DNA of 64,000 bases, taken from positions 82,851-146,850 of the IMG/VR virus record IMGVR_UViG_3300026472_000003; one strand, given 5' to 3'. Source of the DNA: a virus (taxonomy: Duplodnaviria > Heunggongvirae > Uroviricota > Caudoviricetes). A program made the position numbers and the translations under genes. Below the pieces are notes generated by a model. The model was not told the DNA's origin, did not search any database, and saw only the letters and a program-made list of their open reading frames with translations. Shown here piece by piece: positions 39,349-58,195 of this stretch. Every line of letters begins with the position of its first letter. Position 1 is the first letter of the stretch.

Positions 39349-39425
<77 letters not shown>

Positions 39426-39429
39426 TGTC

Positions 39430-39518
39430 TGGTGCGTCCGGTGGGGGTCGAACCCACAATCCCCGTCAGGGGAGGGAGATTTTAAGTCTCCTGTATATAC
39501 CAATTTCACCACAGACGC
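39430..39518 (-). tRNA. tRNA-Leu(UAA)
   Basis: Class II tRNA, anticodon arm GGAGA-CUUAAAA-UCUCC, long variable arm, acceptor GCGUCUG/CGGACGC. Confidence 0.7.
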
Positions 39519-40257: not shown

Positions 40258-40333
40258 TGGAGCTGGTTGCAGGACTTGAACCCGCCACCCCCTGCTTACA
40301 AGGCAGGTGCTCTACCATATGAGCTAAACCAGC
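40258..40333 (-). tRNA. tRNA-Thr(UGU)
   Basis: GCUGGUU UA GCUC AUAUGGUA GAGC A CCUGC CUUGUAA GCAGG .. UUCAAGU .. AACCAGC U CCA. Confidence 0.75.
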
Positions 40334-40740
40334 ATGACATGTTGTCTCCGATAGACGCCTGGAGGTGTGGAGCGGCATATCTTATGACCGACCAGCCTGT
40401 AACCCAGGGTTTGAAGGAACTTTGTTTTTTAAGGCTTCACGTTTGAACTGCTAAACTTTAACCTTTCACACTTGAGGGGAGTTCACAGCCTCCTAAGAGC
40501 CGAAGCGAACTTAACCCGATGAACTTTGAGACATGAACTTTGAAGGTTTTTTCGAATGTATTCGAAACATCTTACGGTTATCATATCAGATAATCACCAT
40601 TATGTGTGTTGAGGTAGTTTAACCTCCAACCTCGATAGAGGTAAGATGTAACCACATCGTGATACCGAAAACAACATGTAAAACTTTAACAGCTTTATTA
40701 AGGAATCACAAGAGGTTATTCAAGGATTCCGTAAATTTTG

Positions 40741-41391
40741 TTACTCTGCCTTAGCAGGTTCCACTTCAATCTCTGTACGAGCGTTAGACTCGGAGAGAGC
40801 GAAGTCAACTTCGGTTAAGAAGTCGTCGATTTCTGTTTCCAGAGCTTCGATAACTGCTGCAAGCCCTGTTGGATCGTACAACGCTGGTTCACCACGTTGA
40901 CGGAGAGGTACAGCGATACCCTCTACTTCATCGCCTTTAGTGGCACGGTCACGACCTAACAGTGTATCCAACTTGCTAGACAAAGCCGCGTCAAATTCAC
41001 TGGAACGCTTGCTGAACTGGATCATCCCCATGTTATACAGCGCTTTCATCTTAGCTAAGAGGCCCTGACGAAGCACAACGCTACGCTTCTGCTCAATTGC
41101 TTGGGCTACAGTGGTCTCTTTACCACCAATGGTGACCAAGGTCACAGCATTTGACTGGATAATCCCAGCTTTCAGCAAGTCACGCATTGTCAGCATATCC
41201 GTAATAGACTGCAATTGAGACTGGGCCTTAGTGGCGAAATCAGTGGCGGTGACGGTTTTACCCGTGAGTTTCAGATAAGTACCTTGTCCTTCGGTCACTG
41301 CGACCAAGTCAAGACGCTCAGTTTGTTTAAGCAGCTTTGCGTCGAGGGACTTCAAAGTTGCCAGAGCACGGGTAATAGACATCTTAGCCAT
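40741..41391 (-). CDS. hypothetical protein
   Basis: 216-aa ORF with GGAG-type RBS, between the two tRNA clusters. Confidence 0.45.
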   Translation of the reverse strand: MAKMSITRALATLKSLDAKLLKQTERLDLVAVTEGQGTYLKLTGKTVTATDFATKAQSQLQSITDMLTMRDLLKAGIIQSNAVTLVTIGGKETTVAQAIEQKRSVVLRQGLLAKMKALYNMGMIQFSKRSSEFDAALSSKLDTLLGRDRATKGDEVEGIAVPLRQRGEPALYDPTGLAAVIEALETEIDDFLTEVDFALSESNARTEIEVEPAKAE

Positions 41392-41468
41392 TGTATTTCT
41401 CCTCTATGGATTTTAATTTTGAGTTTTAAGTTTAGTTCTTGCCGACATCCTTGTCAGCTTTGCAGTTA

Positions 41469-42080
41469 TTACTGCTTGCCAGTCTGAACAACTACCGCAG
41501 CGCGGTTGGCGTCAGCTTTAGCGATTTCCAGACGAGTGTCACGTTCTGCCTTGATCTGGTCACGCAGTTCTGCTACCTGAGCTTCAAGGTCTTTGATTCG
41601 GCTGTCTTTTGCAGTGTTACCCGCGTTCAGTTCAGCAATCGCAATCTTGTGCGTGGATTCCTGTGAGGACAGGCGAGCTTGCAGCTCACGAGCGCTTGAG
41701 GACTGTGCAGCGGCGACAGCAGAGGTAACTGCGTCTTCGTTACTGTCCAGAGCGTTGCTCAGGTCGTTACGGAGCTGAGAAACTTCTTCCGGCTTGATGC
41801 TAACCAGGCCACGAGCTTTCAGAATCGAGTTCACAACTGCGTCTTCGTTTTCCAGCGTCTTGATTTTCAGCACAGATTTAGCTTCTGCAAGTTTTTCGTC
41901 GTACTGAGTTTCGATCTGAGACAGTTCTTTCTGCTTGAACTGGATTTCCTGAGAAATCTGCTCAGATCCTTCTGCCAAGCCCTGTAGCTCAAGGACAACC
42001 TTACTCAGGTTACCTGATGCAGCAGCTACAGCTTTGGTTGCACGTTCGGTTACGGACACTACAGTTTTTACGTCAGACAT
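41469..42080 (-). CDS. coiled-coil hypothetical protein
   Basis: 203 aa, E/Q/A/K-rich heptad character, GAGGGG RBS. Confidence 0.45.
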   Translation of the reverse strand: MSDVKTVVSVTERATKAVAAASGNLSKVVLELQGLAEGSEQISQEIQFKQKELSQIETQYDEKLAEAKSVLKIKTLENEDAVVNSILKARGLVSIKPEEVSQLRNDLSNALDSNEDAVTSAVAAAQSSSARELQARLSSQESTHKIAIAELNAGNTAKDSRIKDLEAQVAELRDQIKAERDTRLEIAKADANRAAVVVQTGKQ

Positions 42081-42107
42081 GTTATTTTCCCCTCTCTAGG
42101 ATTTAAG

Positions 42108-42254
42108 TTAAACGTCCAAGTCGTATTTACGACGGGACTCTTCAATAATTTCTTTGGTAGTCATGGTGTTCTCTTGACCTATCCAGTAATACCAAAGAAA
42201 GATTACTACACTCAATACTGTCATTACCCCGAAGGACACTAACGGCGAAGGCAT
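42108..42254 (-). CDS. small hydrophobic protein (48 aa, not in ORF track)
   Basis: ATG at 42254 preceded by AGGAG. Translation MPSPLVSFGVMTVLSVVIFLWYYWIGQENTMTTKEIIEESRRKYDLDV. Confidence 0.35.
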   Translation of the reverse strand: MPSPLVSFGVMTVLSVVIFLWYYWIGQENTMTTKEIIEESRRKYDLDV

Positions 42255-42339
42255 ATGCACTCCTATTTGTTTTCACGTAAAGCACTTTCGTCCATTTAAG
42301 CTATCACCCTGTGCCATTACGCGAGCCGGGTCAGCAAGA

Positions 42340-42420
42340 CTGGGAGTCGAACCCAGATCTCTCTACATGAAAATTGGCAGTGTACCTCGGGTTCGAACCA
42401 AGACGCTACGAGGAGCTACC
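42340..42420 (-). ncRNA. tRNA-like degenerate element with two T-arm-like motifs
   Basis: Contains CUGGG-UUCGACU-CCCAG and CUUGG-UUCGAAC-CCGAG followed by GUACACU-G-CCA, but no matching 5' acceptor or anticodon arm was found. Confidence 0.25.
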
Positions 42421-42530
42421 TCGTCTGCTGTTGACCTTCGTCCTGCTTTGCCTTTCACCGCATTCCTGCCGCTCGTCAGCCACAATGTTTCGGCTTCCAG
42501 CAAAGAGACTCTTCAACATACACCATAACT

Positions 42531-42606
42531 TGGTGGGATGTACAGGCTTCGAACCTGTGACCTACGGATTAAGAATCCGCCGCTCTACCTACTGGGCTAA
42601 CATCCC
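42531..42606 (-). tRNA. tRNA-Lys(CUU)
   Basis: GGGAUGU UA GCCC AGUAGGUA GAGC G GCGGA UUCUUAA UCCGU .. ACAGG UUCGAAG CCUGU ACAUCCC A CCA. Confidence 0.75.
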
Positions 42607-42777
42607 AAATTTGTGCCAGACCAGTATTTTAAGTCCCCTGTCTGGCGTGAGGGAGACTATCTGCCATTGAGAGGTGACACCTTACTACGACCCTAACGAC
42701 CTGCAACTCCTTCCAATGGTTGGCTCATGCACTCGTTAGCGCCGATTCAGGACAATCCTTCTCGACAGCAAATCAGG

Positions 42778-43119
42778 TTACTTTTTCTTTTTGGAAGAAC
42801 CTTTAGATTCTACCGCCTTCGCTTCGACCTTAGTCTCACGAGACTTACTCAGGCGCTCACGCTTAGTTTTGCCTGTTCGGATACGATGAGAAACAGAAAT
42901 TACCTGACCACCTTCAACACTTGTCTTCGACTCCCAGAGGTAAACTACGTTACCGTCTTCGTCACGTCCTTTCTTGCGAACAGAAACCGTCTTGGTTGTA
43001 CCGCCAAGACGAAGGTCTTTAGCAGGTGAAGAAGTCTGTGTTGACTTCGAGTCAAAAGAGAAAGGCTGCTTAATCGCGTCGATTGCAGAGACTTTCTTAG
43101 CAGTGTTTTTCTTAGCCAT
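42778..43119 (-). CDS. small lysine-rich basic protein
   Basis: 113 aa, K/S/T-rich with a KKKK C-terminus, AGGAGA RBS. Confidence 0.45.
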   Translation of the reverse strand: MAKKNTAKKVSAIDAIKQPFSFDSKSTQTSSPAKDLRLGGTTKTVSVRKKGRDEDGNVVYLWESKTSVEGGQVISVSHRIRTGKTKRERLSKSRETKVEAKAVESKGSSKKKK

Positions 43120-43241
43120 CTTATGTTTCTCCTATTTGGATTATTTTATCTAACGTTTTGTTTTCTTTGTGTCTTTCAATGTCGGTAAGAGTAATCTCTT
43201 TTCTTCTCATTGTCAACACTTATTTTAAATCTTTTTTTGTT

Positions 43242-43318
43242 TGGTGGCCCATGCCGGACTCGAACCGACAACCGAGCGATTATGAGTCGCTTGCTCTAAC
43301 CAATTGAGCTAAAGGGCC
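43242..43318 (-). tRNA. tRNA-Met(CAU), elongator or Ile2-type
   Basis: GGCCCUU UA GCUC AAUUGGUUA GAGC A AGCGA CUCAUAA UCGCU .. UCGG-UUCGAGU-CCGGC AUGGGCC A CCA. Confidence 0.65.
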
Positions 43319-44620: not shown

Positions 44621-46384
44621 TTATTTCAGTAATCGTTCACGAATGGCTGTCAACGTTGTCTGATTAAACAACTTACCATTACGGAAGATTATTTGCAACT
44701 GATTATCCTCATCAGCCACCTCATGGAGGCCAAGCCCATCAATCAGTTGGTACACACCATCCGCCCCGAGAACAACCTTCAAGAAACCATTCGCAGATTT
44801 TTTCTTCATGTCTGTTTTCGGTTCTTTTGTCACCAGGATTTCATCACCACCGATGATGGAGCCAGTTGCTTTACATGCGAAACCTAAACTGTCGCGGGTG
44901 CTGTAGTTGTAGGTATAAGACCCGATGCCGAAAACGATGTTGCTTGAAGCATAACCACGTTCTTTCAGGCGAATCAGAATGTCTTCCGCACGTTGCAGCG
45001 TGATGCTGTCACCGTAGATCAGGCCGATATGTGAATCCAGAACACGGAAGCCTTTGCTGTTAACAGTTCCGCCGAAGGTTTCCCATAGGCATTCGATTGT
45101 GCCAAGAACTTCGTGACGTTTCAAGCTAGTGGCTTCACCCTTCTCACCGTAATAAACCCCATCTTCTTCAATGAGTTCCGCACCGCTGACCTTGAAGATG
45201 GTTTCAATATCACTTGGCGTGAAGTCAGAAACTTTTTCAATCTCTTCAATGTCCGCAAGATTTGACTCAAGAACCTCTGCCCAGCCGAGACGCCCTTCTT
45301 CGTACTCTGCACGGAGGTACGCTTTAGCAGCTTCAACTGAAATGACACGGTAGCCTGCAATGATACGCACTGGGTCACCAGAATCTGGACGAATAACCAG
45401 CTTGCCTTCACGGGCCATGATTTCATCTTTCAGTTCCGGCAACATTGCCAGGATAACTGCCCAGTAATCATAACTGTCTGAAACATATGAGCAATATCCG
45501 TCAGGATAAATTTCAGTCGCATACTTCTCCAGGAATACCAGCTCTGCTGCATAACGAAGCTCATCCAGAGTGGCATCTTTAAATCCTGGGTCTTTCAGAA
45601 GATTTTTAATAATCTTTCCGATATTCGTCGTCGCAACACTGTGTTCTGATGCTGGAATTGAACCCGCAACGAATTTATGAGCCATCCCATAGTAACGACG
45701 AGCATAACGGATTGCCGGAATGGTGTCCGTGCCGTAGAACGAAGTTAAATGTGCAATACCGTTTTTGTATGCATCAGCAATGCCAGACAATCCACGGAAA
45801 CTGAAATCATGACACTGGAACATTAAGTGGTCTAATGCATCACAGGTCTGATCCGCAAAATCACGGCACAGTTTGTAATACTGGTGTGCGATTGTTGCAT
45901 TGTTCATGACCTTCCAGGTTTCAGCCGACAGCGCCGTCTCAAAATAGTTTGTCAACCAGAAGAAACGAGAATCTGTGTTGTGGATAGTATAAACAGGAAC
46001 CTGAACTGGGGCCAATGAACCCTCCGGCAGGCAACGCATTTCTAAAGGTAAATAACCCAAGTCATGCAGAGCTTCGATATGCTCAGTGCGGATTTTTTCC
46101 TGAGGGATGCCCAAAGACAACCACAACTCTTCAACGTATTCACCGATAACCTGTTCTTTCGGTTGAGCGAAGAATTGCTCATTCCAATACTCAACTAAAA
46201 AGTTGATTGCAACACCCTGGACGCCAGCGACCACAACACGATGGTCTGAACCATAGAAGTGAGGGAAAAGTTTTTCAGATCGCGGGGTGAAGTTAGAGAA
46301 AATAACTTCACTTGCTTGGTTGTACTGATCAGCATGTGATGGTTTGTAGAAATCGGTTGCGAACAGCGGGTTCATCTTGATCAT
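44621..46384 (-). CDS. nicotinamide phosphoribosyltransferase (NAMPT/NadV)-like protein
   Basis: 587 aa. N-terminus NPLFATDFYKPSHADQY matches the NAMPT start (NILLATDSYKVTHYKQY). Confidence 0.65.
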   Translation of the reverse strand: MIKMNPLFATDFYKPSHADQYNQASEVIFSNFTPRSEKLFPHFYGSDHRVVVAGVQGVAINFLVEYWNEQFFAQPKEQVIGEYVEELWLSLGIPQEKIRTEHIEALHDLGYLPLEMRCLPEGSLAPVQVPVYTIHNTDSRFFWLTNYFETALSAETWKVMNNATIAHQYYKLCRDFADQTCDALDHLMFQCHDFSFRGLSGIADAYKNGIAHLTSFYGTDTIPAIRYARRYYGMAHKFVAGSIPASEHSVATTNIGKIIKNLLKDPGFKDATLDELRYAAELVFLEKYATEIYPDGYCSYVSDSYDYWAVILAMLPELKDEIMAREGKLVIRPDSGDPVRIIAGYRVISVEAAKAYLRAEYEEGRLGWAEVLESNLADIEEIEKVSDFTPSDIETIFKVSGAELIEEDGVYYGEKGEATSLKRHEVLGTIECLWETFGGTVNSKGFRVLDSHIGLIYGDSITLQRAEDILIRLKERGYASSNIVFGIGSYTYNYSTRDSLGFACKATGSIIGGDEILVTKEPKTDMKKKSANGFLKVVLGADGVYQLIDGLGLHEVADEDNQLQIIFRNGKLFNQTTLTAIRERLLK

Positions 46385-46441
46385 TTAAAATCTCTCCTGG
46401 TTATTTTGTGGGGTGATTGTACACCCCGTTTTATTTTGATG

Positions 46442-46969
46442 TCAAGAACAAAGTTCTAAACTGCTTGATGTCTCAACGATTGTTTTTGTTTCTGTTACCA
46501 ATCTGCAACCCTTGACAACAATGGTGCTCTCTTCTTTTGACCAAGAGCGCGGTCTCTTTTTGAAAGACTTTGCACGAAAAATCAAGAAATTAATCACGTT
46601 GTCTGGTGGCGTTTCGGAGAAGAAGATCGCCACACTCTCATAAGCAGGGCATTTAAAAGGCATCTCTTCGGTAACATCGTAATGCAGACCGCGACCATTG
46701 TTAGACCTTCCAGGCGTGGGCCAAATGGTTGTTGGTCGGTCGCACCCACCGTCTGACTGCTGCAATGTGAAATTATCTAACCAATCACAGATGGCATCGA
46801 TGTCAGAGTCAGGATATTCCTTCTTCAAATCTTCCCGTTCAGGAATGTACTCTTTTCCAGCCTCACACTCACCAATCTGCCCAGTGATGTGAGCACACAT
46901 CTCCCGTTCAAAGTTGCCTGAGTAAGAATCTGTGTCAACAACAAAGATAATACGCTTTGATTCAGTCAT
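46442..46969 (-). CDS. hypothetical protein between the PRS-like and NAMPT-like genes
   Basis: 175 aa, Cys/Asp-rich N-terminus. Confidence 0.4.
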   Translation of the reverse strand: MTESKRIIFVVDTDSYSGNFEREMCAHITGQIGECEAGKEYIPEREDLKKEYPDSDIDAICDWLDNFTLQQSDGGCDRPTTIWPTPGRSNNGRGLHYDVTEEMPFKCPAYESVAIFFSETPPDNVINFLIFRAKSFKKRPRSWSKEESTIVVKGCRLVTETKTIVETSSSLELCS

Positions 46970-47805
46970 TAAAAATTCTCCGTCCAGTCATGGTAAGCAT
47001 AAATTTCATCCACACCACCGTCGAGGATAACTTGTTTCCCAAAGGAGAAAATCCCGTGGGTAACATACAGTATTACACGTTTTGCACCTTTGGCTTTCAG
47101 CGCTTGGGCCAGTGCGATAAAGGTACGACCACCGTCACAGATATCATCCACGATAAGGCACTCTTTACCTTCGACATCACCAAACACCGCAGTGCCTGTG
47201 ATTTCACCTGTAGCCAGGTCACGGATTTTTCCTGCCTCAACAATTGGAAGTCGGTTGCTGTCTGCTACACCTTGTGCCTTCTTACGAGCGCCAGCGTCCG
47301 GTGCAACAACAACGACATCACGAGCGAAGAGGCCGACACCGAGGGTTGGACTGTTTTTAACAATCAGACTATTCAGCTCACGAACCAATTCCTTCTGCCC
47401 ACGGATTCGGATTTTGTTGATAAGGGCCTCTGACACATGGCTGTGTGGGTCATCAACAACAACTTTATCAAAGCCGAGGGAGTTGATGATATTCGCAAAA
47501 ACTTTAATGGATAAGGATTCACCTGGTTGCATCACTCGGTCTTGTCGAGCATAAGGGATGTACGGGAGGTTCAGAACGAACTCCGCGTTGGTGTCCAGAT
47601 TCTCCAGACGTGAACATGCATCAACCAGCAATGCTAGTGTCATAACGTCAACAGATGTCTTGATTTTGGCTGTGATTTCCACAAAACCGATACGCCCGTG
47701 CGGCGCATGTGCCAAGTCAATCTTAACCTGCTCTTCTCCACCCTTGAAAGTGAAGTGCTCAACTGGAACCACGAGATTGTTCAGTTGTAATTTTACGTTA
47801 CTCAT
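46969..47805 (-). CDS. ribose-phosphate pyrophosphokinase (PRPP synthetase)-like protein
   Basis: PYIPYARQDR and DDICDGGRT motifs of the Prs family. Confidence 0.7.
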   Translation of the reverse strand: MSNVKLQLNNLVVPVEHFTFKGGEEQVKIDLAHAPHGRIGFVEITAKIKTSVDVMTLALLVDACSRLENLDTNAEFVLNLPYIPYARQDRVMQPGESLSIKVFANIINSLGFDKVVVDDPHSHVSEALINKIRIRGQKELVRELNSLIVKNSPTLGVGLFARDVVVVAPDAGARKKAQGVADSNRLPIVEAGKIRDLATGEITGTAVFGDVEGKECLIVDDICDGGRTFIALAQALKAKGAKRVILYVTHGIFSFGKQVILDGGVDEIYAYHDWTENF

Positions 47806-48191
47806 TTTGAGTCTCCTCTGTTCATGATTATAAAGTGCCGTGGCTTCGCGTTCCCGCTGGAATCAACAAAGCCCGACTTGATTCTTGTAATGTAGCCAAA
47901 ATCTTCCATTTTCTTTAAGAACTCAGAAACCTTCGGCTGTAGCTTCTCACTCAGACCAAACAGTTGGCAAAGAGATTTCTGTGATGGGAAAAACACATAG
48001 TCACCTGCGTCCTTGTTGATACTCTTGAAGTAATCATATCGCCACCAAAGTTTCATGAGCCTCTGCAAGTCCAAAGGAGTGAGTCGGCTATCAAACACCC
48101 AAGAAGTGGGAACAGTAAGGTATGACCCTTCCCGCACCGACACGGTGCTTTCTCCCAGTTTGATCTCCACCACTTTCTCCCCTTGGTTCAC
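47802..48191 (-). CDS. putative winged-helix DNA-binding protein (first gene of minus-strand operon)
   Basis: C-terminal LSEKLQPKVSEFLKKMEDFGYITRIK resembles a wHTH. GTG start, close to a TTGACA-N18-TAGTAT promoter. Confidence 0.35.
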   Translation of the reverse strand: MNQGEKVVEIKLGESTVSVREGSYLTVPTSWVFDSRLTPLDLQRLMKLWWRYDYFKSINKDAGDYVFFPSQKSLCQLFGLSEKLQPKVSEFLKKMEDFGYITRIKSGFVDSSGNAKPRHFIIMNRGDSK

Positions 48192-49428: not shown

Positions 49429-49667
49429 AAAGCCTGAATAAATTATACCGTCGGTACAACAAGTTAAAAGCAAAACGGGCTGGTGTCGTTCAAGCATTCG
49501 TTGTTAGTAAAGAGGCAATGAAGCAAAATCGAATAACCCCTTGCCAGAGAGACTTGATACGCAAGTGGTTGGGGCCTTCTGTTGAAGAAATGGACGCAGA
49601 GATAAGAAATCTGAAAGGAAAAATCTCTGTAAAATTAGGAGAAATACATGCTTCATATAACATCTGA
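49425..49667 (+). CDS. hypothetical protein
   Basis: 80 aa. Confidence 0.4.
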   Translation: MKSLNKLYRRYNKLKAKRAGVVQAFVVSKEAMKQNRITPCQRDLIRKWLGPSVEEMDAEIRNLKGKISVKLGEIHASYNI

Positions 49668-50223
49668 CACCCACGATTCACATAAGAACATCCTGGGTTT
49701 CCCTTCCTGCAACAAGTTCCGTTATGACCTGTATGGGCCGAAGGAAGACCCTGAGAGTGTTGTCCGAATGAACGAAGGGATAGTTAAAATCTGGAACCAG
49801 CACGTCTCCCCACAAGATACTGTGTATCACTTGGGGGATGTGAGTTTGGCCTATGGCAAGAAGTCCATTGAGGCTCTCCATCGGTTTTTAAGTTCTGTGA
49901 ATGGAAAGATAACCCTCCTTCGGGGGAATCACGACCATAAAGAAACACGGAAGATGTTTGAAATGTTTGGTCACGAGGTTAAGGACTACCTTGAGATTGA
50001 GTTTGAGAAAGTCAAGGTGTGTATGTCCCACTACCCATTTGCGTCGTGGAATAAAGCTCACCACGGGTCGGTGATGTTGCATGGGCATAGCCACGGGTCT
50101 TACACGGCACCAGGCGGCAGAATATTGGATGTTGGTTGGGATGTTCATGGAAGACCATTAACCATGAAAGAGGCAGTTGACATCTGCCTGAAAAAGCCTG
50201 TATTCTCTACTGACCATCACTAA
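49648..50223 (+). CDS. calcineurin-like metallophosphoesterase
   Basis: Motifs DTHDSH, GDVSLAYG, GNHDHKE, HGHSHG. AGGAGA RBS. Confidence 0.65.
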   Translation: MLHITSDTHDSHKNILGFPSCNKFRYDLYGPKEDPESVVRMNEGIVKIWNQHVSPQDTVYHLGDVSLAYGKKSIEALHRFLSSVNGKITLLRGNHDHKETRKMFEMFGHEVKDYLEIEFEKVKVCMSHYPFASWNKAHHGSVMLHGHSHGSYTAPGGRILDVGWDVHGRPLTMKEAVDICLKKPVFSTDHH

Positions 50224-50235: not shown

Positions 50236-51162
50236 GTGGAAAAGTTCAATGTAGATGACTTAATAGCCAAAGGCCTTGTTCGTGCAAAGACTTACACCGA
50301 GGGCCAGTTCTCTGGCTTACGTGTGTTGAAGTATCACGGGCGTGTTTTTTGGGACAATATGTGGAAGCAAGACCCGCGATTGAAGGAGTGTCGTGGGATT
50401 GTTGTTGACCAAGATGATAACGTAATACTGCACCCGTTCACCAAAATCTTCAACCGTGGTGAAAACAAAACGGATCTTGCAATGGATCGCGTTGTTATCG
50501 AAGTGGAGAAGATAAACGGCTTCATGGCTGGGGCCACTGTATACAAAGGGAAGTGGTTAGTTTCGACGACTGGTACATTGGATTCTGACTATGCACGACT
50601 GGCGGAGGAAGTTATCCAGTTCTATAATCCATATCCGTCTCTTGACATTGGTTATACGCAAGAAGGGGCGATGTGGCGATCTTTGGATTTAATGTTTGAG
50701 ATTTGTCATCCATCAGACCCACACATCGTTGAGCAAGAGCCGGGGGCCTATTTGATAGGCGCTCGGTGCAGAGGTACAGGGAGAATGCTCTCTGAATCAG
50801 CACTGGACGGTATCTGCCCTGTTGGATGGAAACGTCCAGCTTGGCGCAAGTGTCTCTTTGCAGACACCGTAGAGGCCGCTAAATCATGCAAACATGAAGG
50901 CTTCGTGGTTCGTGATGTTGATTCTGGTGAACTTCTGCTGAAAATAAAGTCACCACACTACTTGGCGAAGAAATTCTTCATGCGTGGTGGGATTAAGAAG
51001 TGCGACTTAATCTGGGATACGGATCGTGTGAAGAAGTCGGTGGATGAAGAATACTACCCACTTCTCGACTACATCCGAGCAAATTATACAAAAGAGGCCT
51101 GGCTGGCCCTGCAAGAGCAGGAGCGCCGCCTGAAAATAGAGGCTTATTTGGAGGGAGATTGA
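50236..51162 (+). CDS. RNA ligase-like nucleotidyltransferase
   Basis: Motif I EKINGF (KxNG), motif IV EGFVV, motif V LLKIKSP. Confidence 0.5.
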   Translation: MEKFNVDDLIAKGLVRAKTYTEGQFSGLRVLKYHGRVFWDNMWKQDPRLKECRGIVVDQDDNVILHPFTKIFNRGENKTDLAMDRVVIEVEKINGFMAGATVYKGKWLVSTTGTLDSDYARLAEEVIQFYNPYPSLDIGYTQEGAMWRSLDLMFEICHPSDPHIVEQEPGAYLIGARCRGTGRMLSESALDGICPVGWKRPAWRKCLFADTVEAAKSCKHEGFVVRDVDSGELLLKIKSPHYLAKKFFMRGGIKKCDLIWDTDRVKKSVDEEYYPLLDYIRANYTKEAWLALQEQERRLKIEAYLEGD

Positions 51163-51584
51163 CACAACAAATTTACCTTGGGACGCTGTACATAATTCGG
51201 GGCTGCTCCGGCTCCGGTAAATCTACCTTCTCGAAAGAGCTGGCAGAGGTTACCGGAGGAATCCGTTATGAGGCGGACATGTACATGTATGATGAAGATG
51301 GTCATTATGACTGGCAGGCGGGCAAGCTGAAAGCCGCCCACCGCTGGGTGTATGAAGGGATAAGGGGCTGCATGATAAATGCAAAAGGCCCTTTGATCAT
51401 CGCTGACACGAACGTTAAGATCCGAGATTTGCAACTTTACCTTGACTTGGCTGCGGAGTATAACTATCGTGTTATCTCCTTGGTCTTAGAGAACAGGCAC
51501 GGGAACAAGTCCATCCATGACGTTCCTGACAAGACTATGCGCCGACAGGAGTCAGCGTTGCGTCAATCCCTCAAATTGGTGTGA
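51159..51584 (+). CDS. polynucleotide 5'-kinase (P-loop, T4 Pnk-like)
   Basis: Walker A GCSGSGKST in LYIIRGCSGSGKSTFSKEL, similar to T4 Pnkp ILTIGCPGSGKSTWAREF. Confidence 0.55.
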   Translation: MTQQIYLGTLYIIRGCSGSGKSTFSKELAEVTGGIRYEADMYMYDEDGHYDWQAGKLKAAHRWVYEGIRGCMINAKGPLIIADTNVKIRDLQLYLDLAAEYNYRVISLVLENRHGNKSIHDVPDKTMRRQESALRQSLKLV

Positions 51585-52069
51585 CCATGAGAACTCCTTT
51601 AGGTGATGGTGTTGACCACATCAATATCTACACGAAGGGGAGAACTCTCTTGGGGCGGATGCTGACCAACCTGTATGATTGTCAGTTCACCGTCCCTGGG
51701 TATGGCACATTCCAGAGCCTTGAGGGGTTCTGGTATTACTACCTAACTGGTTGCCAGTTTGAAGAGTTCAAATCTAAACGTGGTTTTGATGCCAAAAAAG
51801 CGGGAAAAACGAAAAGGGATTCGCGGATAGACAAGGATGGGTTGACCGAAGGTCAGAAATCTGTCATTCTGGAGGCGATCCGGTGCAAACTAAGGCAAAA
51901 TAAGGATATTCTCCTCGCTTTGGCGAGGTCTGACCTACCATTTGCACACTATTATTTCTACGGAGAACCTGAGAACGCCAAGGTCATAGAGCTACCACAG
52001 TTCGATTGGATGATTGAGGAGTTTACAAGGCTTCGCGGCTTATTGAAGGATATTGGATATGGCATTTGA
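51581..52069 (+). CDS. NADAR (YbiA/DUF1768-like) domain protein
   Basis: INIYTKGRTLLGRMLTNLYDCQFTVPGYGTFQSLEGFWYY fits the F..LSNF..F..G..F.S.EH.YQ core pattern. Confidence 0.45.
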   Translation: MTMRTPLGDGVDHINIYTKGRTLLGRMLTNLYDCQFTVPGYGTFQSLEGFWYYYLTGCQFEEFKSKRGFDAKKAGKTKRDSRIDKDGLTEGQKSVILEAIRCKLRQNKDILLALARSDLPFAHYYFYGEPENAKVIELPQFDWMIEEFTRLRGLLKDIGYGI

Positions 52070-52280
52070 TAGCGGATTGAGCGAGCTGGGGAAGGCTTTC
52101 ATAAGAGATAACCCACCACTCCTTTCCCTTCTTTACGATGCAAACATACTGCCGGAGGTGGTTGTGACTTTACAGAACCCTGCAAGACGTGCAACTCTGC
52201 TGGTGGCTGTTGTGGCATATGCACTCGGGAAGGGGCATGAAGACCCGAACACATTACTTAAACCTCAGGAGACAGCTTAA
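52053..52280 (+). CDS. hypothetical protein
   Basis: 75 aa. Confidence 0.35.
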   Translation: MDMAFDSGLSELGKAFIRDNPPLLSLLYDANILPEVVVTLQNPARRATLLVAVVAYALGKGHEDPNTLLKPQETA

Positions 52281-53128
52281 TGCGTCGATTAATAGTTATC
52301 TCTGGTGCTGGTCTGTCCGCTGAAAGCGGGATCAGAACCTTCCGCACTGACGAAGTGTCAGGGAAATCATTGTGGGACGAGTACAACCTTGAAGAGGTTT
52401 GTAACGTTCACGGGTTTAATACTGGTTACACATACCGTAATGACCCATTCCCTCCGCTGGCAGCACTGTCCGAGGAGACTGAGACATCACCATCTCAGAA
52501 TCTTTATCGTCTGACGCATGATTTTTATAATAAACGGCGGGTTGAGTTGCAGACTGTTGAACCGAATGCAGCACACAACGCAATCGCTGATTGGCACCGC
52601 CGTTTCCCTGGTAAGGTGATTAACCTGACCACAAACGTGGATGACCTTCTCGAACGTGCAGGGGTTGACCGTGATGATGTAATCCACGTTCACGGATACC
52701 TGCCAGAGGTGAAAATTCAGGAAAAAGAAGGCGGGAGTAAAAAGACAATCGATATTGGTTATTCTGAGATCAACCCTGACGATCATCACTGGGCCAAGCC
52801 AAATGTTGTATTCTTCCACGAGAATGCACCGCTGTATGCTGACCTGTATGACCTTATTGATTCTTTGACGAGTCAAGACTTGGTTATCATTGTTGGTTGC
52901 TCGAATATTGTAATCGATTTTGACCGTTTACTTTATTCCCCAATCATGAAAGGGACGAAGTGTATTGTTGTGAACCCACGAATCAGTGAGGCCGATACGA
53001 CATTGTACACCTCTTACGGGATTGCATATTTCCAGACAGGGGCGGTCAGCGCCTTTAGCAATCCAAACCTTGTCAAGGTGGTTGAGGATCACTTAGAGGG
53101 CCTGACATGTCTCCAAGCGAAATCTTAA
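52280..53128 (+). CDS. Sir2-like (sirtuin-fold) protein lacking the zinc ribbon
   Basis: GAGLSAESGIRTFR (NAD-binding GAGISxxSGIPxFR), TTNVDDLLERAG, catalytic HG in IHVHGYL. No CxxC pairs. Confidence 0.7.
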   Translation: MRRLIVISGAGLSAESGIRTFRTDEVSGKSLWDEYNLEEVCNVHGFNTGYTYRNDPFPPLAALSEETETSPSQNLYRLTHDFYNKRRVELQTVEPNAAHNAIADWHRRFPGKVINLTTNVDDLLERAGVDRDDVIHVHGYLPEVKIQEKEGGSKKTIDIGYSEINPDDHHWAKPNVVFFHENAPLYADLYDLIDSLTSQDLVIIVGCSNIVIDFDRLLYSPIMKGTKCIVVNPRISEADTTLYTSYGIAYFQTGAVSAFSNPNLVKVVEDHLEGLTCLQAKS

Positions 53129-53142: not shown

Positions 53143-53310
53143 ATGACCCGTCTTGAACTTATCACCGTCATGGAGGATGCCTTTATTGATGGTTGGAACA
53201 AGAAAGATTGTGACTGGTACAATCCTCAGGACTTCCTTGAGGCACACAAACAATACGGCGAAAGCTCTGAAACAACTATCGCTATTGATAACCTGAAAGA
53301 GGGCCATTAA
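53143..53310 (+). CDS. small hypothetical protein
   Basis: ATG at 53143 with AAGAGG RBS. The track's 53107 start overlaps the Sir2-like gene. Confidence 0.35.
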   Translation: MTRLELITVMEDAFIDGWNKKDCDWYNPQDFLEAHKQYGESSETTIAIDNLKEGH

Positions 53311-53313: not shown

Positions 53314-54621
53314 ATGAGTATCAGCTTAGACACTCCGGTGCTTTTTGCATTGAACAAAGATGCATCCTTCCAGAAATGGAAGGTGTTCACGGAGGGGGAT
53401 GAGGTTGTTGTCGAGTTCGGTAAGCTCGGCGGAAAAATGCAACAAAAACGCACCAAATGTGAGATGAAGAATGTCGGTCGGGCTAACCAGACGGATGCCG
53501 ACTTCCAAGCTCTGTTAGAAGCTCGATCTAAATGGGAAAAACAGGTTCGTCTTGGCTATCGGGAAAGTGTTGAGCTGTTAACGCTGGAGGAGAATCTCTC
53601 CACGATGCTGGCCCATGATTACCTGAAAAAACCGAATGCCATTGTTCTACCTTGCTATACTCAACCAAAACTAGATGGTGTCCGTGCTCTGGTTCTGTAT
53701 ACGGACGGTGTTCCAGTATTTAATAGTCGTGGCAATAAGACATATCCTGTCCAGGGTAAACTTATTTCTCAAATGACTCGCTTGGCAAACGAAACAGGGT
53801 TTGACAAATTCGATGGGGAGCTGTACATTCATGGCTTGAGTTTGCAGAAGATTTCTGCCCTGGCGAAGAAGTGGCGGAGCCACGAGATGATTGCGGAAGA
53901 AATCCAGAAGGATTACGAAGCAGACATCAAGCGCCGGAACAAGGCAATAGCCGCAGGGGAAGAGAAATACAAAAACTTCGACGACGTTCTGTTCAGCGTG
54001 GATGTTGAGCCAGTTAAAGATGTTGACCGCTACAAAGGTTATTGCAGCTTCGACTTGCAGTTCCACATCTTTGATATTCCAGTGAACAAAAATAGTGTCT
54101 GGTGTGATAATGAAAAAGCTCCAGCATTCTGCCGCCTAGCGGACTTGATTGAAGTGGACACCGTGGTGGGTGTTAAAGAATCAGGGTATAGCCACATCCA
54201 TACTGTACTGGGTAGTTTTTGCCATACTCTGGAAGAAGTGAAGACCACCGTTGGTGTTAACATGCAAAGCGGCTACGAAGGATCGATGATTCGAAACTTC
54301 AAGGGTGTTTATGAGTTCGGACAGCGGTCTTCTGACCTTCTGAAATGGAAGATATTCCAGACAGCAGAGGCCAAAGTGAAGGACTCAAAAGAGGATAAGA
54401 ACGGTGAAGGTGTTCTGGACTGCGTGGAGCAAGACGGGACTGAGTTTAGCTGTAAGATGAAAGGGACTCATGCTGAGAGAACCCAGTCAAACATGCTGAA
54501 ACTCAAAGGCCAGTTCATTACCTTTAGTTTCCAAGCGCGTACCGATGCGGGTGTTCCGCAGTTCCCAGTGGGGATTTGTGTACGTGAAGTTAATCCAACA
54601 ACATGGGAGCCTATTTACTAA
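53314..54621 (+). CDS. ATP-dependent DNA ligase
   Basis: Motif I PKLDGVRAL (KxDG). Confidence 0.7.
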   Translation: MSISLDTPVLFALNKDASFQKWKVFTEGDEVVVEFGKLGGKMQQKRTKCEMKNVGRANQTDADFQALLEARSKWEKQVRLGYRESVELLTLEENLSTMLAHDYLKKPNAIVLPCYTQPKLDGVRALVLYTDGVPVFNSRGNKTYPVQGKLISQMTRLANETGFDKFDGELYIHGLSLQKISALAKKWRSHEMIAEEIQKDYEADIKRRNKAIAAGEEKYKNFDDVLFSVDVEPVKDVDRYKGYCSFDLQFHIFDIPVNKNSVWCDNEKAPAFCRLADLIEVDTVVGVKESGYSHIHTVLGSFCHTLEEVKTTVGVNMQSGYEGSMIRNFKGVYEFGQRSSDLLKWKIFQTAEAKVKDSKEDKNGEGVLDCVEQDGTEFSCKMKGTHAERTQSNMLKLKGQFITFSFQARTDAGVPQFPVGICVREVNPTTWEPIY

Positions 54622-55085
54622 TGGCACAATACGTTAAAAAGCCAGTGATCATCGAAGCGCACCAGTTCCAAGGGAGCACAACCTCCGCAAACCAGATTAA
54701 GAACTGGATTGAAACAGGTAAGTGGCGTGATGCAGAAATCCACACACGGGATATCCGAACGCTAGAGATCCCAACTCTCGAAGGTGTTATGGTTGCCACT
54801 GCGGGAGACTACATCATCAAAGGCGTCCAAGGTGAGTTTTATCCTTGCAAACCGGAAATCTTCTCTATGACTTATGACCTAGTCTCAGAGGGCGATGAGC
54901 TTAAACCTGGTGATCACAAGGCAAATACTCTGACCGCTGGTGTTCGTATCTCTTATTGTGGTAAGGAATATGACATCACCAAAGTAGAGAACTACCACGA
55001 AGAGACAAAGCTGACTCTTTCCGACAACACGACCATTAAAGTTCGTCCTTGGACTGAGCTGACCGTCGTCCTGAAAGGGGAATAA
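54621..55085 (+). CDS. hypothetical protein
   Basis: ATG overlapping the ligase stop (TAATG). The track start at 54603 lies in the ligase frame region. Confidence 0.4.
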   Translation: MAQYVKKPVIIEAHQFQGSTTSANQIKNWIETGKWRDAEIHTRDIRTLEIPTLEGVMVATAGDYIIKGVQGEFYPCKPEIFSMTYDLVSEGDELKPGDHKANTLTAGVRISYCGKEYDITKVENYHEETKLTLSDNTTIKVRPWTELTVVLKGE

Positions 55086-55088
55086 TAC

Positions 55089-55448
55089 ATGATCTGGTAC
55101 GTGCTTGCTCTGCTGAGTGCGACCATCCTTCTTGTTGGCGGTGTTTTCACCGCCTTCTATTTCCGAAAGGATAAGATGGATGATTTCATCGAGTGGACAG
55201 AGGGTAAACGAAAAACTATCGGAAAAATTTGGGTAGGCCTCTTGCTTCTTGTGACTGTGCTGCTGATCAAGCCGTTATGGAACACAATGACGTGCCAGTT
55301 TGATGGAGTGGCATACAAAGCAACCACGACCTACTCATGGTACAAGAATGGGGCCTATGAAGATAAGTGCCTGTTCCAAAGTAAAAACGGAACATTGCTA
55401 CCGTTAAAAATAAATCGTGACCAGCCGGAAGGCTCAGACAACCATTAA
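55089..55448 (+). CDS. membrane protein (two N-terminal TM helices)
   Basis: 119 aa. Confidence 0.45.
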   Translation: MIWYVLALLSATILLVGGVFTAFYFRKDKMDDFIEWTEGKRKTIGKIWVGLLLLVTVLLIKPLWNTMTCQFDGVAYKATTTYSWYKNGAYEDKCLFQSKNGTLLPLKINRDQPEGSDNH

Positions 55449-55462: not shown

Positions 55463-56182
55463 ATGAGTAAGATTCGTGCAACACTGAAAACCATGACCCG
55501 CAAACCAACCTTGATCGATCAAGCCATGCATGTTGTGACATGGAACAGTGTAGCAGTTTCAGCCCGAGGCGGCGCATTCACACCGCTGAACAAGCAGTTC
55601 GACTTCTTAGAGGAAGAATACGACGAGACTATTAAAGCCTTGGCGGAAGGTGATATGGTGGAAGTAGTAGACGGGGTTTGTGACATGTTTGTCGTTGCTT
55701 CTTATGCTTTCTGGTTGACACTAAAAGGAAATAAAGATCACGTTGACGATGACTCCATCAAAAGCCTGATCAGCTTGTGTAAATACAACCCAGGGGTCAG
55801 TTTCAGCTTAGTAGAGCTGGAGATGGCTATCGCTGAGGAGCGGAAGGCGTATAAAGCGTTGGAGCAAGTGATTGCCCTAGCCTACAGCCTCGACATCAAT
55901 CTCGGATACAACCTCAACGAGGTTCTTGCTTCGAATGATAGTAAGTACCCGACCATGGCAGAGTTACGTGCTGAGTTAGACAAGCAATGGGCGAATATTA
56001 AAACGTTGAGTGATGACGAGGTTCTGGCACACGAGGCAAAACAAATTGAGGCCCGTGAAGGCGGTAAATACTCTGGCGTCTATGCGGTTCTTAACGAAGC
56101 CACAGGCCAATATGTGTTCCTCACAGATGCAGGAAAAATTGTTAAACCAATTACTTTCAGAAAACCGAAAATAATCGTTTGA
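55463..56182 (+). CDS. MazG-like nucleotide pyrophosphohydrolase (tentative)
   Basis: FDFLEEEYDETIKAL (EExxE-like) and DGVCDMFVV acidic motifs. Confidence 0.35.
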   Translation: MSKIRATLKTMTRKPTLIDQAMHVVTWNSVAVSARGGAFTPLNKQFDFLEEEYDETIKALAEGDMVEVVDGVCDMFVVASYAFWLTLKGNKDHVDDDSIKSLISLCKYNPGVSFSLVELEMAIAEERKAYKALEQVIALAYSLDINLGYNLNEVLASNDSKYPTMAELRAELDKQWANIKTLSDDEVLAHEAKQIEAREGGKYSGVYAVLNEATGQYVFLTDAGKIVKPITFRKPKIIV

Positions 56183-57147: not shown

Positions 57148-57312
57148 ATGCTGCTGAACTTTCGGGCCGAAACGTACAGCAAGCTAAAATACCTGGCCCA
57201 AAATGCTGACAAATCAATAGCTGCTTACGTGGCAGCTTTATGTGACGAACATGTTGAGCAGAACGTCTCAACTAACTACACCTTAAAAGAGGAAAAAGAA
57301 ACCAATGATTAA
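57148..57312 (+). CDS. small ribbon-helix-helix-like protein (54 aa, not in ORF track)
   Basis: AGAGGGGA RBS. MLLNFRAETYSKLKYLAQNADKSIAAYVAALCDEH.. Its stop overlaps the next start. Confidence 0.35.
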   Translation: MLLNFRAETYSKLKYLAQNADKSIAAYVAALCDEHVEQNVSTNYTLKEEKETND

Positions 57313-58195
57313 GAATATCAAACGTATCCTGTTCGCTGCTGCATTGTCCCTGGCTGCTATTGGCCTTACCGGATGTGAACGTGCGACTGTCCCCGCTGGC
57401 TATGTCGGCGTTAAAGTAGACCTGTATGGCGATGAAAAAGGCGTACAGCAGCAGGAAGTTGGTGTTGGTAAGTATTGGTTGACTTGGAACGAAGAAATTT
57501 ATCAGTTCCCAACATTCAACCAGTTGAACAACTATCCGAAACCGTTCAACTTCCAGACCAAAGACTCCATGACGGTTGGGGCGCTTATCGGGGTTGAATA
57601 CTATGTTGACCCAAGCAAGGTAACTAAGATTTTCCAGACGTACCGTAAAGGCGTCCAAGAGATCACCGACATCAACATCCGCCAGAACATCTCGGATGCT
57701 CTGATTAAGGAAGCTGGTTATCTGGACATTGGTACACTGGCGGGTGATGGTAAAGCGAAGCTGCTAGACCATGTTACTCAAACTGTGAAGGCGAAGTTAG
57801 ACCCTATTGGTATCATCATTGTTAAGCTGTCCTACATTGATGAGTTAGAATATCCACCACAGGTTAAAGCGTCAATCAACGCCAAGATCGAAGCTACACA
57901 GAAAGCCCTGCTGCGTGAGAATGAGATCCAGCAGACTAAGGCCGAGGCTCAGAAACAAATTGAGGCAGCTCGCGGTGAAGCGGAATCTCGTCGCCTTGAA
58001 GCTCAAGGCCAGGCAGATGCAAAAGTGGCATTAGCTAAGGGTGAAGCAGAGTCAATCAACCTTCGTGGTGATTCTCTCCGTAAAAACCCAGAGATCATGC
58101 AGTTGGAAGCCATCAACAAATGGGACGGTAAAACACCTACCATTATGGGCGGAAACGGTGCAGTACCTTTCGTAAACTTGCCAGCAGGTAAGTAA
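57305..58195 (+). CDS. SPFH/band-7 (HflK/C-prohibitin-like) lipoprotein
   Basis: Lipoprotein signal with LTGC lipobox, then an SPFH-like core and a C-terminal E/A/Q-rich coiled-coil. Confidence 0.55.
   Translation: MIKNIKRILFAAALSLAAIGLTGCERATVPAGYVGVKVDLYGDEKGVQQQEVGVGKYWLTWNEEIYQFPTFNQLNNYPKPFNFQTKDSMTVGALIGVEYYVDPSKVTKIFQTYRKGVQEITDINIRQNISDALIKEAGYLDIGTLAGDGKAKLLDHVTQTVKAKLDPIGIIIVKLSYIDELEYPPQVKASINAKIEATQKALLRENEIQQTKAEAQKQIEAARGEAESRRLEAQGQADAKVALAKGEAESINLRGDSLRKNPEIMQLEAINKWDGKTPTIMGGNGAVPFVNLPAGK

Follow-up and report, generated by a model that had tools for sequence, protein, structure and literature searches.

A sirtuin and a divergent NADAR-fold protein are encoded side by side in a phage genome of ~147 kb, and we see an even chance that they are two independent NAD/ADP-ribose enzymes, the sirtuin linked to RNA repair and the NADAR-like protein serving a separate counter-defence function, with no two-gene system between them. 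Both belong to kinds of gene already known from phages. They lie in the 64,000-nucleotide stretch analysed here (the window), where ORFs of 162 and 282 aa were called on the same strand (Table 1); an independent gene caller run on the source contig agrees with both. The original prediction had described these genes as adjacent members of a second NAD/ADP-ribose-processing module. Their placement stood, but an ORF of 73–75 aa lies between them.

Table 1 Genes of the locus, with positions in the window and the matches that identify them
Feature	Position	Strand	Matches and remarks
NAD-salvage genes: NadV; 175-aa ORF; PRPP synthetase	44621-46384; 46442-46969; 46969-47805	-	Pfam NAPRTase E=2.6e-34; Pribosyltran, Pribosyl_synth, Pribosyltran_N
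Calcineurin-like metallophosphoesterase, candidate RNA 3'-end healing enzyme; first in conserved block	49648..50223	+	Pfam Metallophos_2 E=9.9e-7, Metallophos E=5.6e-6; phrog_547 phosphoesterase E=1.2e-50
T4 Rnl1-like RNA ligase	50236..51162	+	Pfam RNA_lig_T4_1 E=4.5e-8; phrog_562 E=2e-59; syntenic in related phages
P-loop (AAA_33) polynucleotide-kinase-like kinase	51159..51584	+	Pfam AAA_33 E=3.2e-10; phrog_2071 E=3e-40; phrog_505 polynucleotide kinase E=1.6e-7
Divergent His-type NADAR-fold protein, probable ADP-ribosyl N-glycohydrolase; accessory insertion in block	51581..52069	+	
Small ORF, 73-75 aa, between NADAR-like gene and Sir2	52053/52059..52280	+	73 aa as called on source contig
Zn-less phage-clade sirtuin, class-III-like, full NAD+/His catalytic set	52280..53128	+	
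Small ORF, 55-67 aa, between Sir2 and DNA ligase	53143..53310	+	phrog_14200 E=6.3e-23; 55 aa on source contig
ATP-dependent DNA ligase, conserved neighbour downstream of Sir2	53314..54621	+	Pfam DNA_ligase_A_M E=6.7e-9, DNA_ligase_OB_2 E=5.7e-7; phrog_114 E=6.1e-73
MazG-like nucleotide pyrophosphohydrolase, block end; syntenic	55463..56182	+	Pfam PRA-PH E=6e-4 (just under curated cut-off); phrog_671 E=2.5e-21; phrog_12019 MazG-like

In Vequintavirinae-like phages the sirtuin gene is a constant member of a conserved block that runs phosphoesterase, Rnl1-like RNA ligase, kinase, Sir2, DNA ligase and MazG. Henunavirus and most Mydovirus-type loci retain the order from phosphoesterase to DNA ligase, with the metallophosphoesterase gene in the identical position in both, and in almost every Vequintavirinae-like locus with both genes detected the DNA ligase comes after Sir2, either directly or with one or two small genes between. 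In the window the order is phosphoesterase, RNA ligase, kinase, the NADAR-like gene with the first small ORF, Sir2, the second small ORF, DNA ligase and, further on, MazG. The stop codon of the kinase gene overlaps the start of the NADAR-like gene, while the sequence TAATG combines the stop of the first small ORF with the start of Sir2, upstream of which stands AGGAG. This first small ORF has no match in Pfam, PHROG, PADLOC or NCBIfam. It accompanies the NADAR-like insertion, with ~80% identity in Hena1 and pEp_SNUABM_01, and is missing from Mydovirus-type loci, where the kinase runs directly into Sir2; the second (phrog_14200) is restricted to Henunavirus-type loci. A scan of 47.8–56.6 kb for promoters and terminators gave about as many as expected by chance, and operon boundaries could not be drawn from it. 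Early-region timing of both genes is plausible.

Judged by its sequence, the 282-aa protein is a true sirtuin of a phage-specific, zinc-less, class-III-like clade. It matches Pfam SIR2 (PF02146; E=1.6e-21, 77.5 bits against a cut-off of 24) and phrog_2162 (E=3.6e-94). The GAGxSxxSGIxxFR NAD-binding loop, the xNxD motif and the catalytic His are all present, as is every Sir2 motif quoted in the original prediction (GAGLSAESGIRTFR, residues 9–22; TTNVDDLLERAG, 117–128; HVHG, 135–139). Residues G9, A10, G11, S13, S16, G17, F21, R22, F82, Y83, R86, R87, N119, D121, H138 and G139 are shared by all 50 family members, so that the class-III Y-x-x-R motif (Y83-x-x-R86) is invariant. The zinc ribbon, said from the outset to be missing, is indeed absent, with no CxxC or Cys4 site. 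The segment of 29–35 residues between HG and KPNVVFF contains no Cys in 27 members, the window protein among them, one in 22 and two in a single member, and a Cys-free three-stranded sheet is predicted where the zinc site would be. The FF-x-E substrate loop is retained, although its middle residue varies (G in 39/50), and many members carry an insertion of 26–30 residues after residue 47. The family is acidic, with a median pI of 5.1. The window sirtuin is 53–60% identical to Sir2 proteins of Mydovirus, Henunavirus and phi92-like phages, and the clade is very common: of about 50,700 deposited phage genomes, 980 have it, T5-like and rV5-like phages among them. Our literature search returned no experimental work on it.

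The zinc-less architecture had led to the proposal that the protein is a defence-type NADase, or a toxin-like ADP-ribosyltransferase, serving superinfection exclusion or host shut-off. We consider this extremely unlikely. Defence SIR2 NADases (ThsA, DSR1/2, SIR2-HerA, SPARSA, Avs5) do share the SIR2 Rossmann core and the absent zinc ribbon with the phage sirtuin, and the NAD-salvage genes of the phage could offset a loss of NAD+. However, the phage protein matches deacylase sirtuins best in both sequence and fold, the closest fold match not being to the defence SIR2 domains (ThsA, DSR, SIR2-HerA, pAgo-SIR2), and the invariant His138, N119/D121 and Y83-x-x-R86 point the same way. The best PADLOC match is not significant (E=0.0014 over 39 residues). 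The protein has a single domain, with no sensor or partner (HerA, SLOG, TIR, pAgo, STAND) fused or adjacent to it, its neighbours being the kinase, the NADAR-like gene, small ORFs and the DNA ligase, and its gene is part of the conserved core of strictly lytic phage lineages (980 records). Nor does it have the Macro-domain operon partner of SirTM, the macrodomain-linked ADP-ribosylating sirtuins.

The phage carries 20 tRNA genes, which fits a link with RNA repair. An RNA-end-processing gene lies within 10 kb in 42 of 80 Sir2-anchored IMG/VR loci, compared with 5 of 80 NADAR-anchored ones, and in HdH2, a T5-like phage, Sir2 is followed after one small ORF by a HAD_SAK_2 gene (PF18143, E=4e-20). 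The conserved block, together with this 'Swiss-army-knife' RNA-repair HAD phosphatase as a neighbour, suggests that the role of the sirtuin is most likely in RNA or tRNA end healing. Iyer, Burroughs, Anantharaman and Aravind (2022; PMC9503650, section 3.7.3) described the same neighbourhood and predicted a KptA/Tpt1-like RNA-repair role for it. Their phage sirtuin clade (Escherichia phage V5/Proteus phage Mydo type) is the same protein family as the window sirtuin, and the loci share the T4-like RNA ligase, nucleotide kinase, calcineurin-like phosphoesterase and MazG. They differ in that the window lineage carries the NADAR-like gene and two small ORFs inserted around the sirtuin, and the cREC gene of the published neighbourhood was not identified at this locus. 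The published function, KptA-like 2'-phosphate removal, is itself a prediction.

We infer, tentatively and with somewhat less than even confidence, that the sirtuin removes RNA 2'-phosphates in the manner of Tpt1/KptA during the healing of broken RNA or tRNA ends. In the Tpt1 reaction (see PMC11417386) an anionic oxygen attacks C1'' of NAD+, nicotinamide leaves and the ribose 2''-OH then attacks. The sirtuin would similarly bind NAD+ and release nicotinamide, with Tyr83 and Arg86 holding the anionic oxygen nucleophile and His138 driving ADP-ribosyl transfer to it from NAD+. The likeness is one of proposed chemistry and of the ligase/kinase/phosphoesterase setting; Tpt1/KptA enzymes have an ART fold unrelated to the sirtuin Rossmann fold, and the sirtuin is not a member of their family. 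Several observations weigh against this role. With the metallophosphoesterase, kinase and ligase the phage could have a full T4-type heal-and-seal pathway that never passes through a 2'-phosphate, so a Tpt1-like step is not obviously needed, and an acidic family is unlike typical RNA-binding enzymes. The synteny comes from only 2–3 phage lineages and could reflect inherited early-gene order, not shared function. If the clade does act on RNA 2'-phosphates, sirtuin chemistry would extend from proteins to RNA and a conserved phage gene would be explained.

A near-equal alternative, likewise short of even, is protein-lysine deacylation (deacetylation, desuccinylation or demalonylation) of the CobB kind, by which the sirtuin would reset host or phage protein acylation early in infection; its place in the RNA-repair/ligase block would then be inherited gene order only. 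E. coli CobB is its best PDB sequence match (E=1.6e-19), other class III sirtuins also match, and its best NCBIfam family is 'NAD-dependent protein deacylase'. Its FYNKRR aligns to FYNARR of CobB, in which, as in SIRT5, the Y-x-x-R motif (CobB Y92/R95) binds acidic acyl groups. Every residue needed for protein deacylation is retained, including the invariant His138, N119, D121 and Y83-x-x-R86 and the FF-x-E loop, and the acidic pI of the family also favours this reading. On the other hand, scores fall far under every CobB equivalog cut-off (106 vs 243, 87.5 vs 318 and 86.1 vs 320 bits; NCBIfam NF040867, NF001755 and related). Compared with CobB and class III/U sirtuins (SIRT5, A. fulgidus Sir2-Af1), the phage protein lacks the Cys4 zinc module, and TQNID has become TTNVD, with Gln replaced by Thr in all 50 members. 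The Pro of the GTSxxVxP substrate-staple motif, to our knowledge near-universal in sirtuins, aligns with Asp or Asn in the phage clade. The association with RNA-end-processing genes, moreover, recurs in an unrelated T5-like lineage.

For the 162-aa protein, fold, profile and hhalign results agree with the initial assignment as NADAR-like. It has no match in Pfam (even at E<=10, with both NADAR, PF08719, and Phage_30_3, PF08010, unmatched), NCBIfam, PADLOC or a single-sequence PDB search, and fold prediction and profile methods were needed to place it. The predicted structure is a NADAR fold with a helical core and two small flanking beta-hairpins, and profile-level matches were obtained to 8bau (E=6.3e-5), gp30.3 (E=6e-8) and YbiA (E=2e-4). 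Residue E48 is invariant in 53/53 family members, lines up with the Glu of 8bau, YbiA and gp30.3 and is the predicted catalytic Glu of the first core helix (PnNADAR E43, E. coli C7 E88, AdfN E36). H123 is also invariant and in the sequence alignment coincides with the His of gp30.3 'LKHS'. The charged residue of the last strand is His in phage NADARs, replacing an otherwise conserved Glu (PMC11125620, PMC11543638); elsewhere this catalytic residue is Glu in YbiA and Asp in BC4488.

The gene encodes a divergent His-type phage NADAR, a remote relative of T4 AdfN (gp30.3). The two share a NADAR fold without the DarG1 N-terminal extension, E48 corresponding to AdfN E36 and H123 also aligned (hhalign 94.7%, E=6e-8), but pairwise BLAST finds no similarity between them, and four residues, WYYY, are inserted behind the catalytic Glu in the window protein. 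The phosphate-coordinating Lys seven residues past the Glu (PnNADAR K50, C7 K95, AdfN K43) falls at Leu55 or Gln59 depending on the alignment, AdfN K43 pairing with Gln59; this alignment column varies across the family, K/R occurring in only some displayed members. As this Lys is not conserved, activity or substrate may differ. The NADAR fold starts at about residue 13, leaving no N-terminal extension, and the DarG1-type features of DarTG1, a basic N-terminal extension and an ART-like neighbour or adjacent DarT1 gene, are absent. Searches of the window with YbiA, gp30.3 and PnNADAR fragment queries (tblastn and phmmer) found no second, canonical NADAR. The family comprises 2,063 cluster representatives and is present in 566 phage genomes. 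Its profile matches (E=1e-41 to 1e-67) include many fusion proteins, one being the 'DprA-like protein' of Erwinia phage RAY. The family escapes current Pfam NADAR models, and wherever the gene is annotated among ~40 sampled records it is labelled 'hypothetical protein'.

The activity that we infer for this protein from its aligned residues is, most likely, hydrolysis of an N-glycosidic ADP-ribose linkage, for which Glu48 and His123 would be used. The target may be a nucleobase to which a DarT1-like toxin has attached ADP-ribose, or a small molecule derived from ADP-ribose, and the protein would work as a counter-defence enzyme that does not require the sirtuin. AdfN is a proven anti-DarTG1 enzyme, the E36A variant of which rescues more weakly from DarTG1 and no longer removes ADP-ribose from DNA in vitro (PMC11825919). 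The anti-DarT-type role put forward originally is a reasonable lead given the remote homology to AdfN (PMC11825919), and the His-type link makes the family a counter-defence candidate in Ackermannviridae, jumbo phages and Henunaviruses. That the protein acts on small ADP-ribose-derived molecules and not on DNA adducts, for example on immune signals or toxic metabolites such as cyclic ADPR isomers or ADPr-cyclic phosphate, seems rather unlikely. Such a role would suit the missing phosphate-coordinating Lys of DNA-active NADARs and the fusion partners seen among the best 150 cluster representatives, namely DUF4326 (phosphatase-like) in 40, SLOG/YAcAr (a cADPR-type ligand sensor) in 41 and Macro in 6. 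Viral NADARs of the same domain family fused to DUF4326, YpsA-like SLOG and Macro have been read in this way before (PMC9503650, section 3.7.4). In the window the domain stands alone, and none of the genes around it was identified as DUF4326, SLOG or Macro. All phage NADARs tested so far (AdfN of T4, Bas32 and Bas60) strip ADP-ribose from guanine in DNA (PMC11825919, PMC11125620), and the basic pI of the family (median 8.4) fits nucleic-acid binding.

Whether the two genes work together can be judged from how often they meet. They lie within 10 kb of each other in only 2 of 80 Sir2-anchored and 3 of 80 NADAR-anchored loci, and among the loci examined this co-occurrence is confined to Henunavirus-like phages. 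These counts speak against the NAD/ADP-ribose module first proposed, as does the finding that the conserved partners of Sir2 are RNA-end-healing and ligase genes (PMC9503650). On the reading we prefer, of two independent enzymes, the NADAR-like gene and the first small ORF would have been inserted between kinase and Sir2 in the Henunavirus-like lineage only, and the annotation of the window is corrected from a 'second NAD module' to a juxtaposition. A functional pair could take the form of a writer and eraser, the sirtuin ADP-ribosylating and the NADAR-like protein reversing it (compare DarT-NADAR and SirTM-Macro), or of a pipeline in which the NADAR-like protein degrades the ADP-ribose product of the sirtuin. 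Such a pair is quite improbable in our estimation, even though the genes share a strand with 211 bp between them, show overlap or coupling of stops and starts, and keep this arrangement in Hena1 and pEp_SNUABM_01, and even though NADARs have been proposed to process the ADP-ribose products of RNA repair (PMC9503650). In most phages with Sir2 (T5-like, Mydovirus-type) a NADAR-like gene is missing from the vicinity. In the one Ackermannviridae locus examined the NADAR-like gene stands beside MazG with no Sir2 nearby, and genomes of ~155–160 kb, the Ackermannviridae range, are absent among the 40 of 980 Sir2 matches listed. Recurrent fusion partners of the NADAR-like family are DUF4326, SLOG and Macro, never Sir2, among the best 150 representatives. 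Finally, the sirtuin shares only 53–54% identity with its orthologue in Henunavirus, against 70–80% for the NADAR-like gene and the flanks, which suggests separate histories.

The insertion sits exactly between the RNA-repair genes and Sir2 and, taken with the published proposal for NADARs in RNA repair, this may mean some functional coupling within the lineage. At its fullest, such coupling would be a yeast/plant-style NAD+-dependent tRNA repair pathway in a phage, an idea we hold to be improbable: the phosphoesterase and kinase would heal, the Rnl1-like ligase would seal, the sirtuin, replacing Tpt1/KptA, would transfer the junction 2'-phosphate to ADP-ribose, and the NADAR-like protein would clear the ADP-ribose derivative. 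If true, this would be the first sirtuin shown acting on RNA.

Two resemblances to other loci were considered and set aside. The T4 order 30.3 (NADAR), 30.2, 30.1 and 30 (ligase) recalls that of the NADAR-like gene, first small ORF, Sir2, second small ORF and ligase, but gp30.2 is no sirtuin, and neither the 30.x proteins nor the ligase of T4 have a match among the window ORFs at E<=1. NARP3 (PMC13464706) is a NadR/PnuC pair and unrelated.

The NAD-rebuilding genes said to lie near the pair were borne out by Pfam for NadV and the PRPP synthetase. The 175-aa ORF between these two was rejected as the missing NMNAT, having no Pfam match and, on reading its sequence, no HxGH motif. The arrangement of these NAD-salvage genes is shared by Henunavirus and Mydovirus loci.

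Both open reading frames of the original prediction, encoding a sirtuin and a NADAR-like protein, lie exactly where it placed them, and the genes called on the metagenome contig of origin (ENA ERZ23216721, 146,778 bp) include the same two. They sit among densely packed genes, all on the plus strand, across 49.6–56.2 kb of the window. The pair had been described as adjacent; they are near neighbours, but a small ORF (o75) intervenes. The stop codon of o75 overlaps the ATG of the sirtuin gene (TAATG), and this overlap couples the two genes translationally. AGGAG precedes the ATG. The upstream kinase gene overlaps the start of the NADAR-like ORF. A scan for promoters and terminators (47.8–56.6 kb) returned counts at chance level. 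o75 and a second small ORF, which flank the sirtuin gene, are both confined to Henunavirus-type loci. Gene order is shared with the cultured Erwinia phages Hena1 and pEp_SNUABM_01, and the source phage is an uncultivated relative of these Henunaviruses (Vequintavirinae).

Features of the sirtuin region and its surroundings, in window coordinates
Feature	Coordinates	Strand	Size	Family
tRNA genes (20, for 17 amino acids)	34952-43318	-		
NadV, 175-aa ORF, PRPP synthetase	44621-48191	-	587, 175 and 278 aa	175-aa ORF: phrog_23621
Metallophosphoesterase	49648-50223	+		
Rnl1-like RNA ligase	50236-51162	+		
AAA_33 kinase	51159-51584	+		
NADAR-like gene	51581-52069	+	162 aa	
Small ORF o75	52053/52059-52280	+	73-75 aa	
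Sirtuin gene	52280-53128	+	282 aa	phrog_2162
Second small ORF	53143-53310	+	55-67 aa	phrog_14200
DNA ligase	53314-54621	+		
Conserved 160-aa and 119-aa genes	54603-55448	+	160 and 119 aa	phrog_419 and related families; phrog_8041
MazG-like protein	55463-56182	+		
SPFH/Band_7-family protein	57305-58195		296 aa	phrog_200; PF01145 on source contig

The sirtuin matches Pfam SIR2 (E=1.6e-21) and phrog_2162 (E=3.6e-94), and every Sir2 motif quoted in the original prediction is found in its sequence. Across 50 aligned homologues there is no variation in the NAD loop, N119, D121, H138 or F82-Y83-x-x-R86-R87. Canonical motifs are altered in the phage clade: TQNID becomes TTNVD, and the Pro of GTSxxVxP becomes Asp or Asn. 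The missing zinc ribbon was correctly recognised. Its position is taken by a segment of 29–35 residues that never holds more than two cysteines in the 50 homologues; the absence is thus real and shared by the clade as a whole. AlphaFold (pLDDT 92.8) folds this stretch into a small predicted sheet of three strands. The protein has all that it would need for cleavage of NAD+ and transfer of ADP-ribose onto an anionic oxygen; His138 would activate the hydroxyl of the ribose. The original prediction had likened this zinc-less, NAD-binding protein to the Sir2 domains of defence systems; we consider that mistaken, and a defence-type NADase very improbable.

The conserved neighbours of the sirtuin gene encode a calcineurin-like phosphoesterase, an Rnl1-like RNA ligase, an AAA_33 kinase, an ATP-dependent DNA ligase and a MazG-like protein. 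This neighbourhood has been described for phages V5 and Mydo by Iyer et al. 2022 (PMC9503650), who predict KptA/Tpt1-like removal of RNA 2′-phosphates by the phage sirtuin; our literature search turned up no experiment that addresses it. Published work and genome annotations already cover the sirtuin, the missing zinc site and the gene's surroundings. In the unrelated, T5-like Escherichia phage HdH2, a HAD_SAK_2 “Swiss-army-knife RNA repair” phosphatase gene lies one small ORF after the sirtuin gene (E=4e-20). Using iterated local profiles, we found at least one HAD_SAK, RNA ligase, kinase or phosphoesterase gene within 10 kb in 42 of 80 Sir2-anchored loci versus 5 of 80 NADAR-anchored loci, counts uncorrected for phylogeny. 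We tentatively favour a role in RNA-end healing, in which the sirtuin would remove 2′-phosphates in the manner of Tpt1, with the phosphate held by Y83 and R86. Against this, repair by the phosphoesterase, kinase and ligase could run to completion with no 2′-phosphate formed at any stage, and the sirtuin family is acidic (pI 5.1). CobB-like protein deacylation is a plausible, if slightly less probable, alternative. The family occurs in 980 deposited phage genomes, usually labelled “Sir2 (NAD-dependent deacetylase)” among the matches listed; the window protein misses all CobB equivalog cut-offs by a wide margin and is not a CobB orthologue.

In HdH2, two paralogous DUF7415 genes (6494–7324 of the locus; E=5e-36 and 9e-31) directly follow the sirtuin and HAD_SAK_2 genes, and this pair may belong to the same block in T5-like phages. 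In most related phage loci that we compared, as in the window, the DNA ligase gene is followed by the 160-aa and 119-aa genes. Either could be the “cREC” of the published neighbourhood; the 160-aa sequence has no Rossmann-like look on reading. The tRNA cluster, which includes two tRNA-Met, three tRNA-Ser and two tRNA-Leu genes, lies approximately 6–15 kb upstream of the RNA-repair block.

The two genes had been proposed to form a dedicated NAD/ADP-ribose module. In 80 IMG/VR loci per family anchor, with 10 kb flanks, a sirtuin gene occurred in only 3 NADAR-anchored loci and a NADAR-like gene in only 2 Sir2-anchored loci; those holding both are Henunaviruses, and the proposal does not stand. 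Mydovirus-type loci run phosphoesterase, RNA ligase, kinase, sirtuin, DNA ligase, 160-aa gene, 119-aa gene, MazG, with the kinase gene abutting the sirtuin gene; it is between these two that the Henunavirus-like lineage carries its insertion, the NADAR-like gene plus o75. In one Ackermannviridae locus the NADAR-like gene adjoins genes for MazG and topoisomerase and has no Sir2 gene in its vicinity, and no genome of Ackermannviridae size class was among 40 sampled from the 980 Sir2 matches. The window sirtuin is 53–54% identical to its Hena1 and pEp_SNUABM_01 orthologues, whereas the RNA ligase, kinase, NADAR-like protein, o75 and DNA ligase share 69–80% identity with their counterparts. The sirtuins closest to it (59–60% identity) come from contigs of ~153 kb. 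This pattern suggests allele replacement or mosaicism at the sirtuin gene. Taken together, the rare co-occurrence, the Mydovirus order lacking the insertion, the Ackermannviridae locus lacking Sir2 and the identity gap establish the pairing as lineage-specific and recent. Functional coupling of the two enzymes is improbable. One of two new points is an uncultured, Henunavirus-like member of these lineages.

The fold assignments, sirtuin and NADAR, were right. The best profile match of the NADAR-like family is T4 gp30.3/AdfN (94.7% probability, E=6e-8), followed by the PnNADAR structure 8bau (E=6.3e-5) and YbiA (E=2e-4). In these alignments invariant E48 corresponds to the catalytic Glu (PnE43, AdfN E36). 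Invariant H123 aligns with the His that is a phage-NADAR-specific replacement for the last-strand Glu/Asp (PMC11543638, PMC11125620). The Lys that coordinates phosphate (PnK50, AdfN K43) is not kept, Gln59 or Leu55 taking its place. The family comprises 2,063 cluster representatives (E≤1e-3) and occurs in 566 phage records, labelled “hypothetical” wherever sampled records annotate the gene. Phage NADARs and their fusions are already known; new is the explicit placement of this large family, missed by current Pfam NADAR models, as His-type NADARs related to AdfN.

Hydrolysis of an N-glycosidic bond to ADP-ribose is the most likely activity of the NADAR-like enzyme. Every phage NADAR tested to date removes ADP-ribose from guanine in DNA and counters DarTG1 (PMC11825919), and the family is basic (median pI 8.4). 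Nucleic-acid adducts have close to an even chance of being the target, and the suggested anti-DarT role holds as a lead, given the remote profile relation to AdfN. Fusion partners in the best 150 of the 2,063 representatives (DUF4326 in 40, YpsA-like SLOG in 41, Macro in 6), which are architectures for viral ADP-ribose processing treated in PMC9503650 (section 3.7.4), are just as indicative of small molecules derived from ADP-ribose, a target we consider less likely. In T4 (127205–128765), the NADAR gene 30.3 (adfN) likewise precedes DNA ligase gene 30 by a few genes; those in between share no homology with their counterparts in the window, so the positional likeness appears coincidental.

On the opposite strand, NadV and PRPP synthetase genes flank a 175-aa ORF with no Pfam match and, on reading, no HxGH nucleotidyltransferase motif. 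Pfam scanning of genes at 44.6–56.5 kb revealed no NMNAT; a complete NARP2-type pathway is therefore not demonstrated. Downstream of the block lies a Band_7-family gene that is also present in pEp_SNUABM_01.
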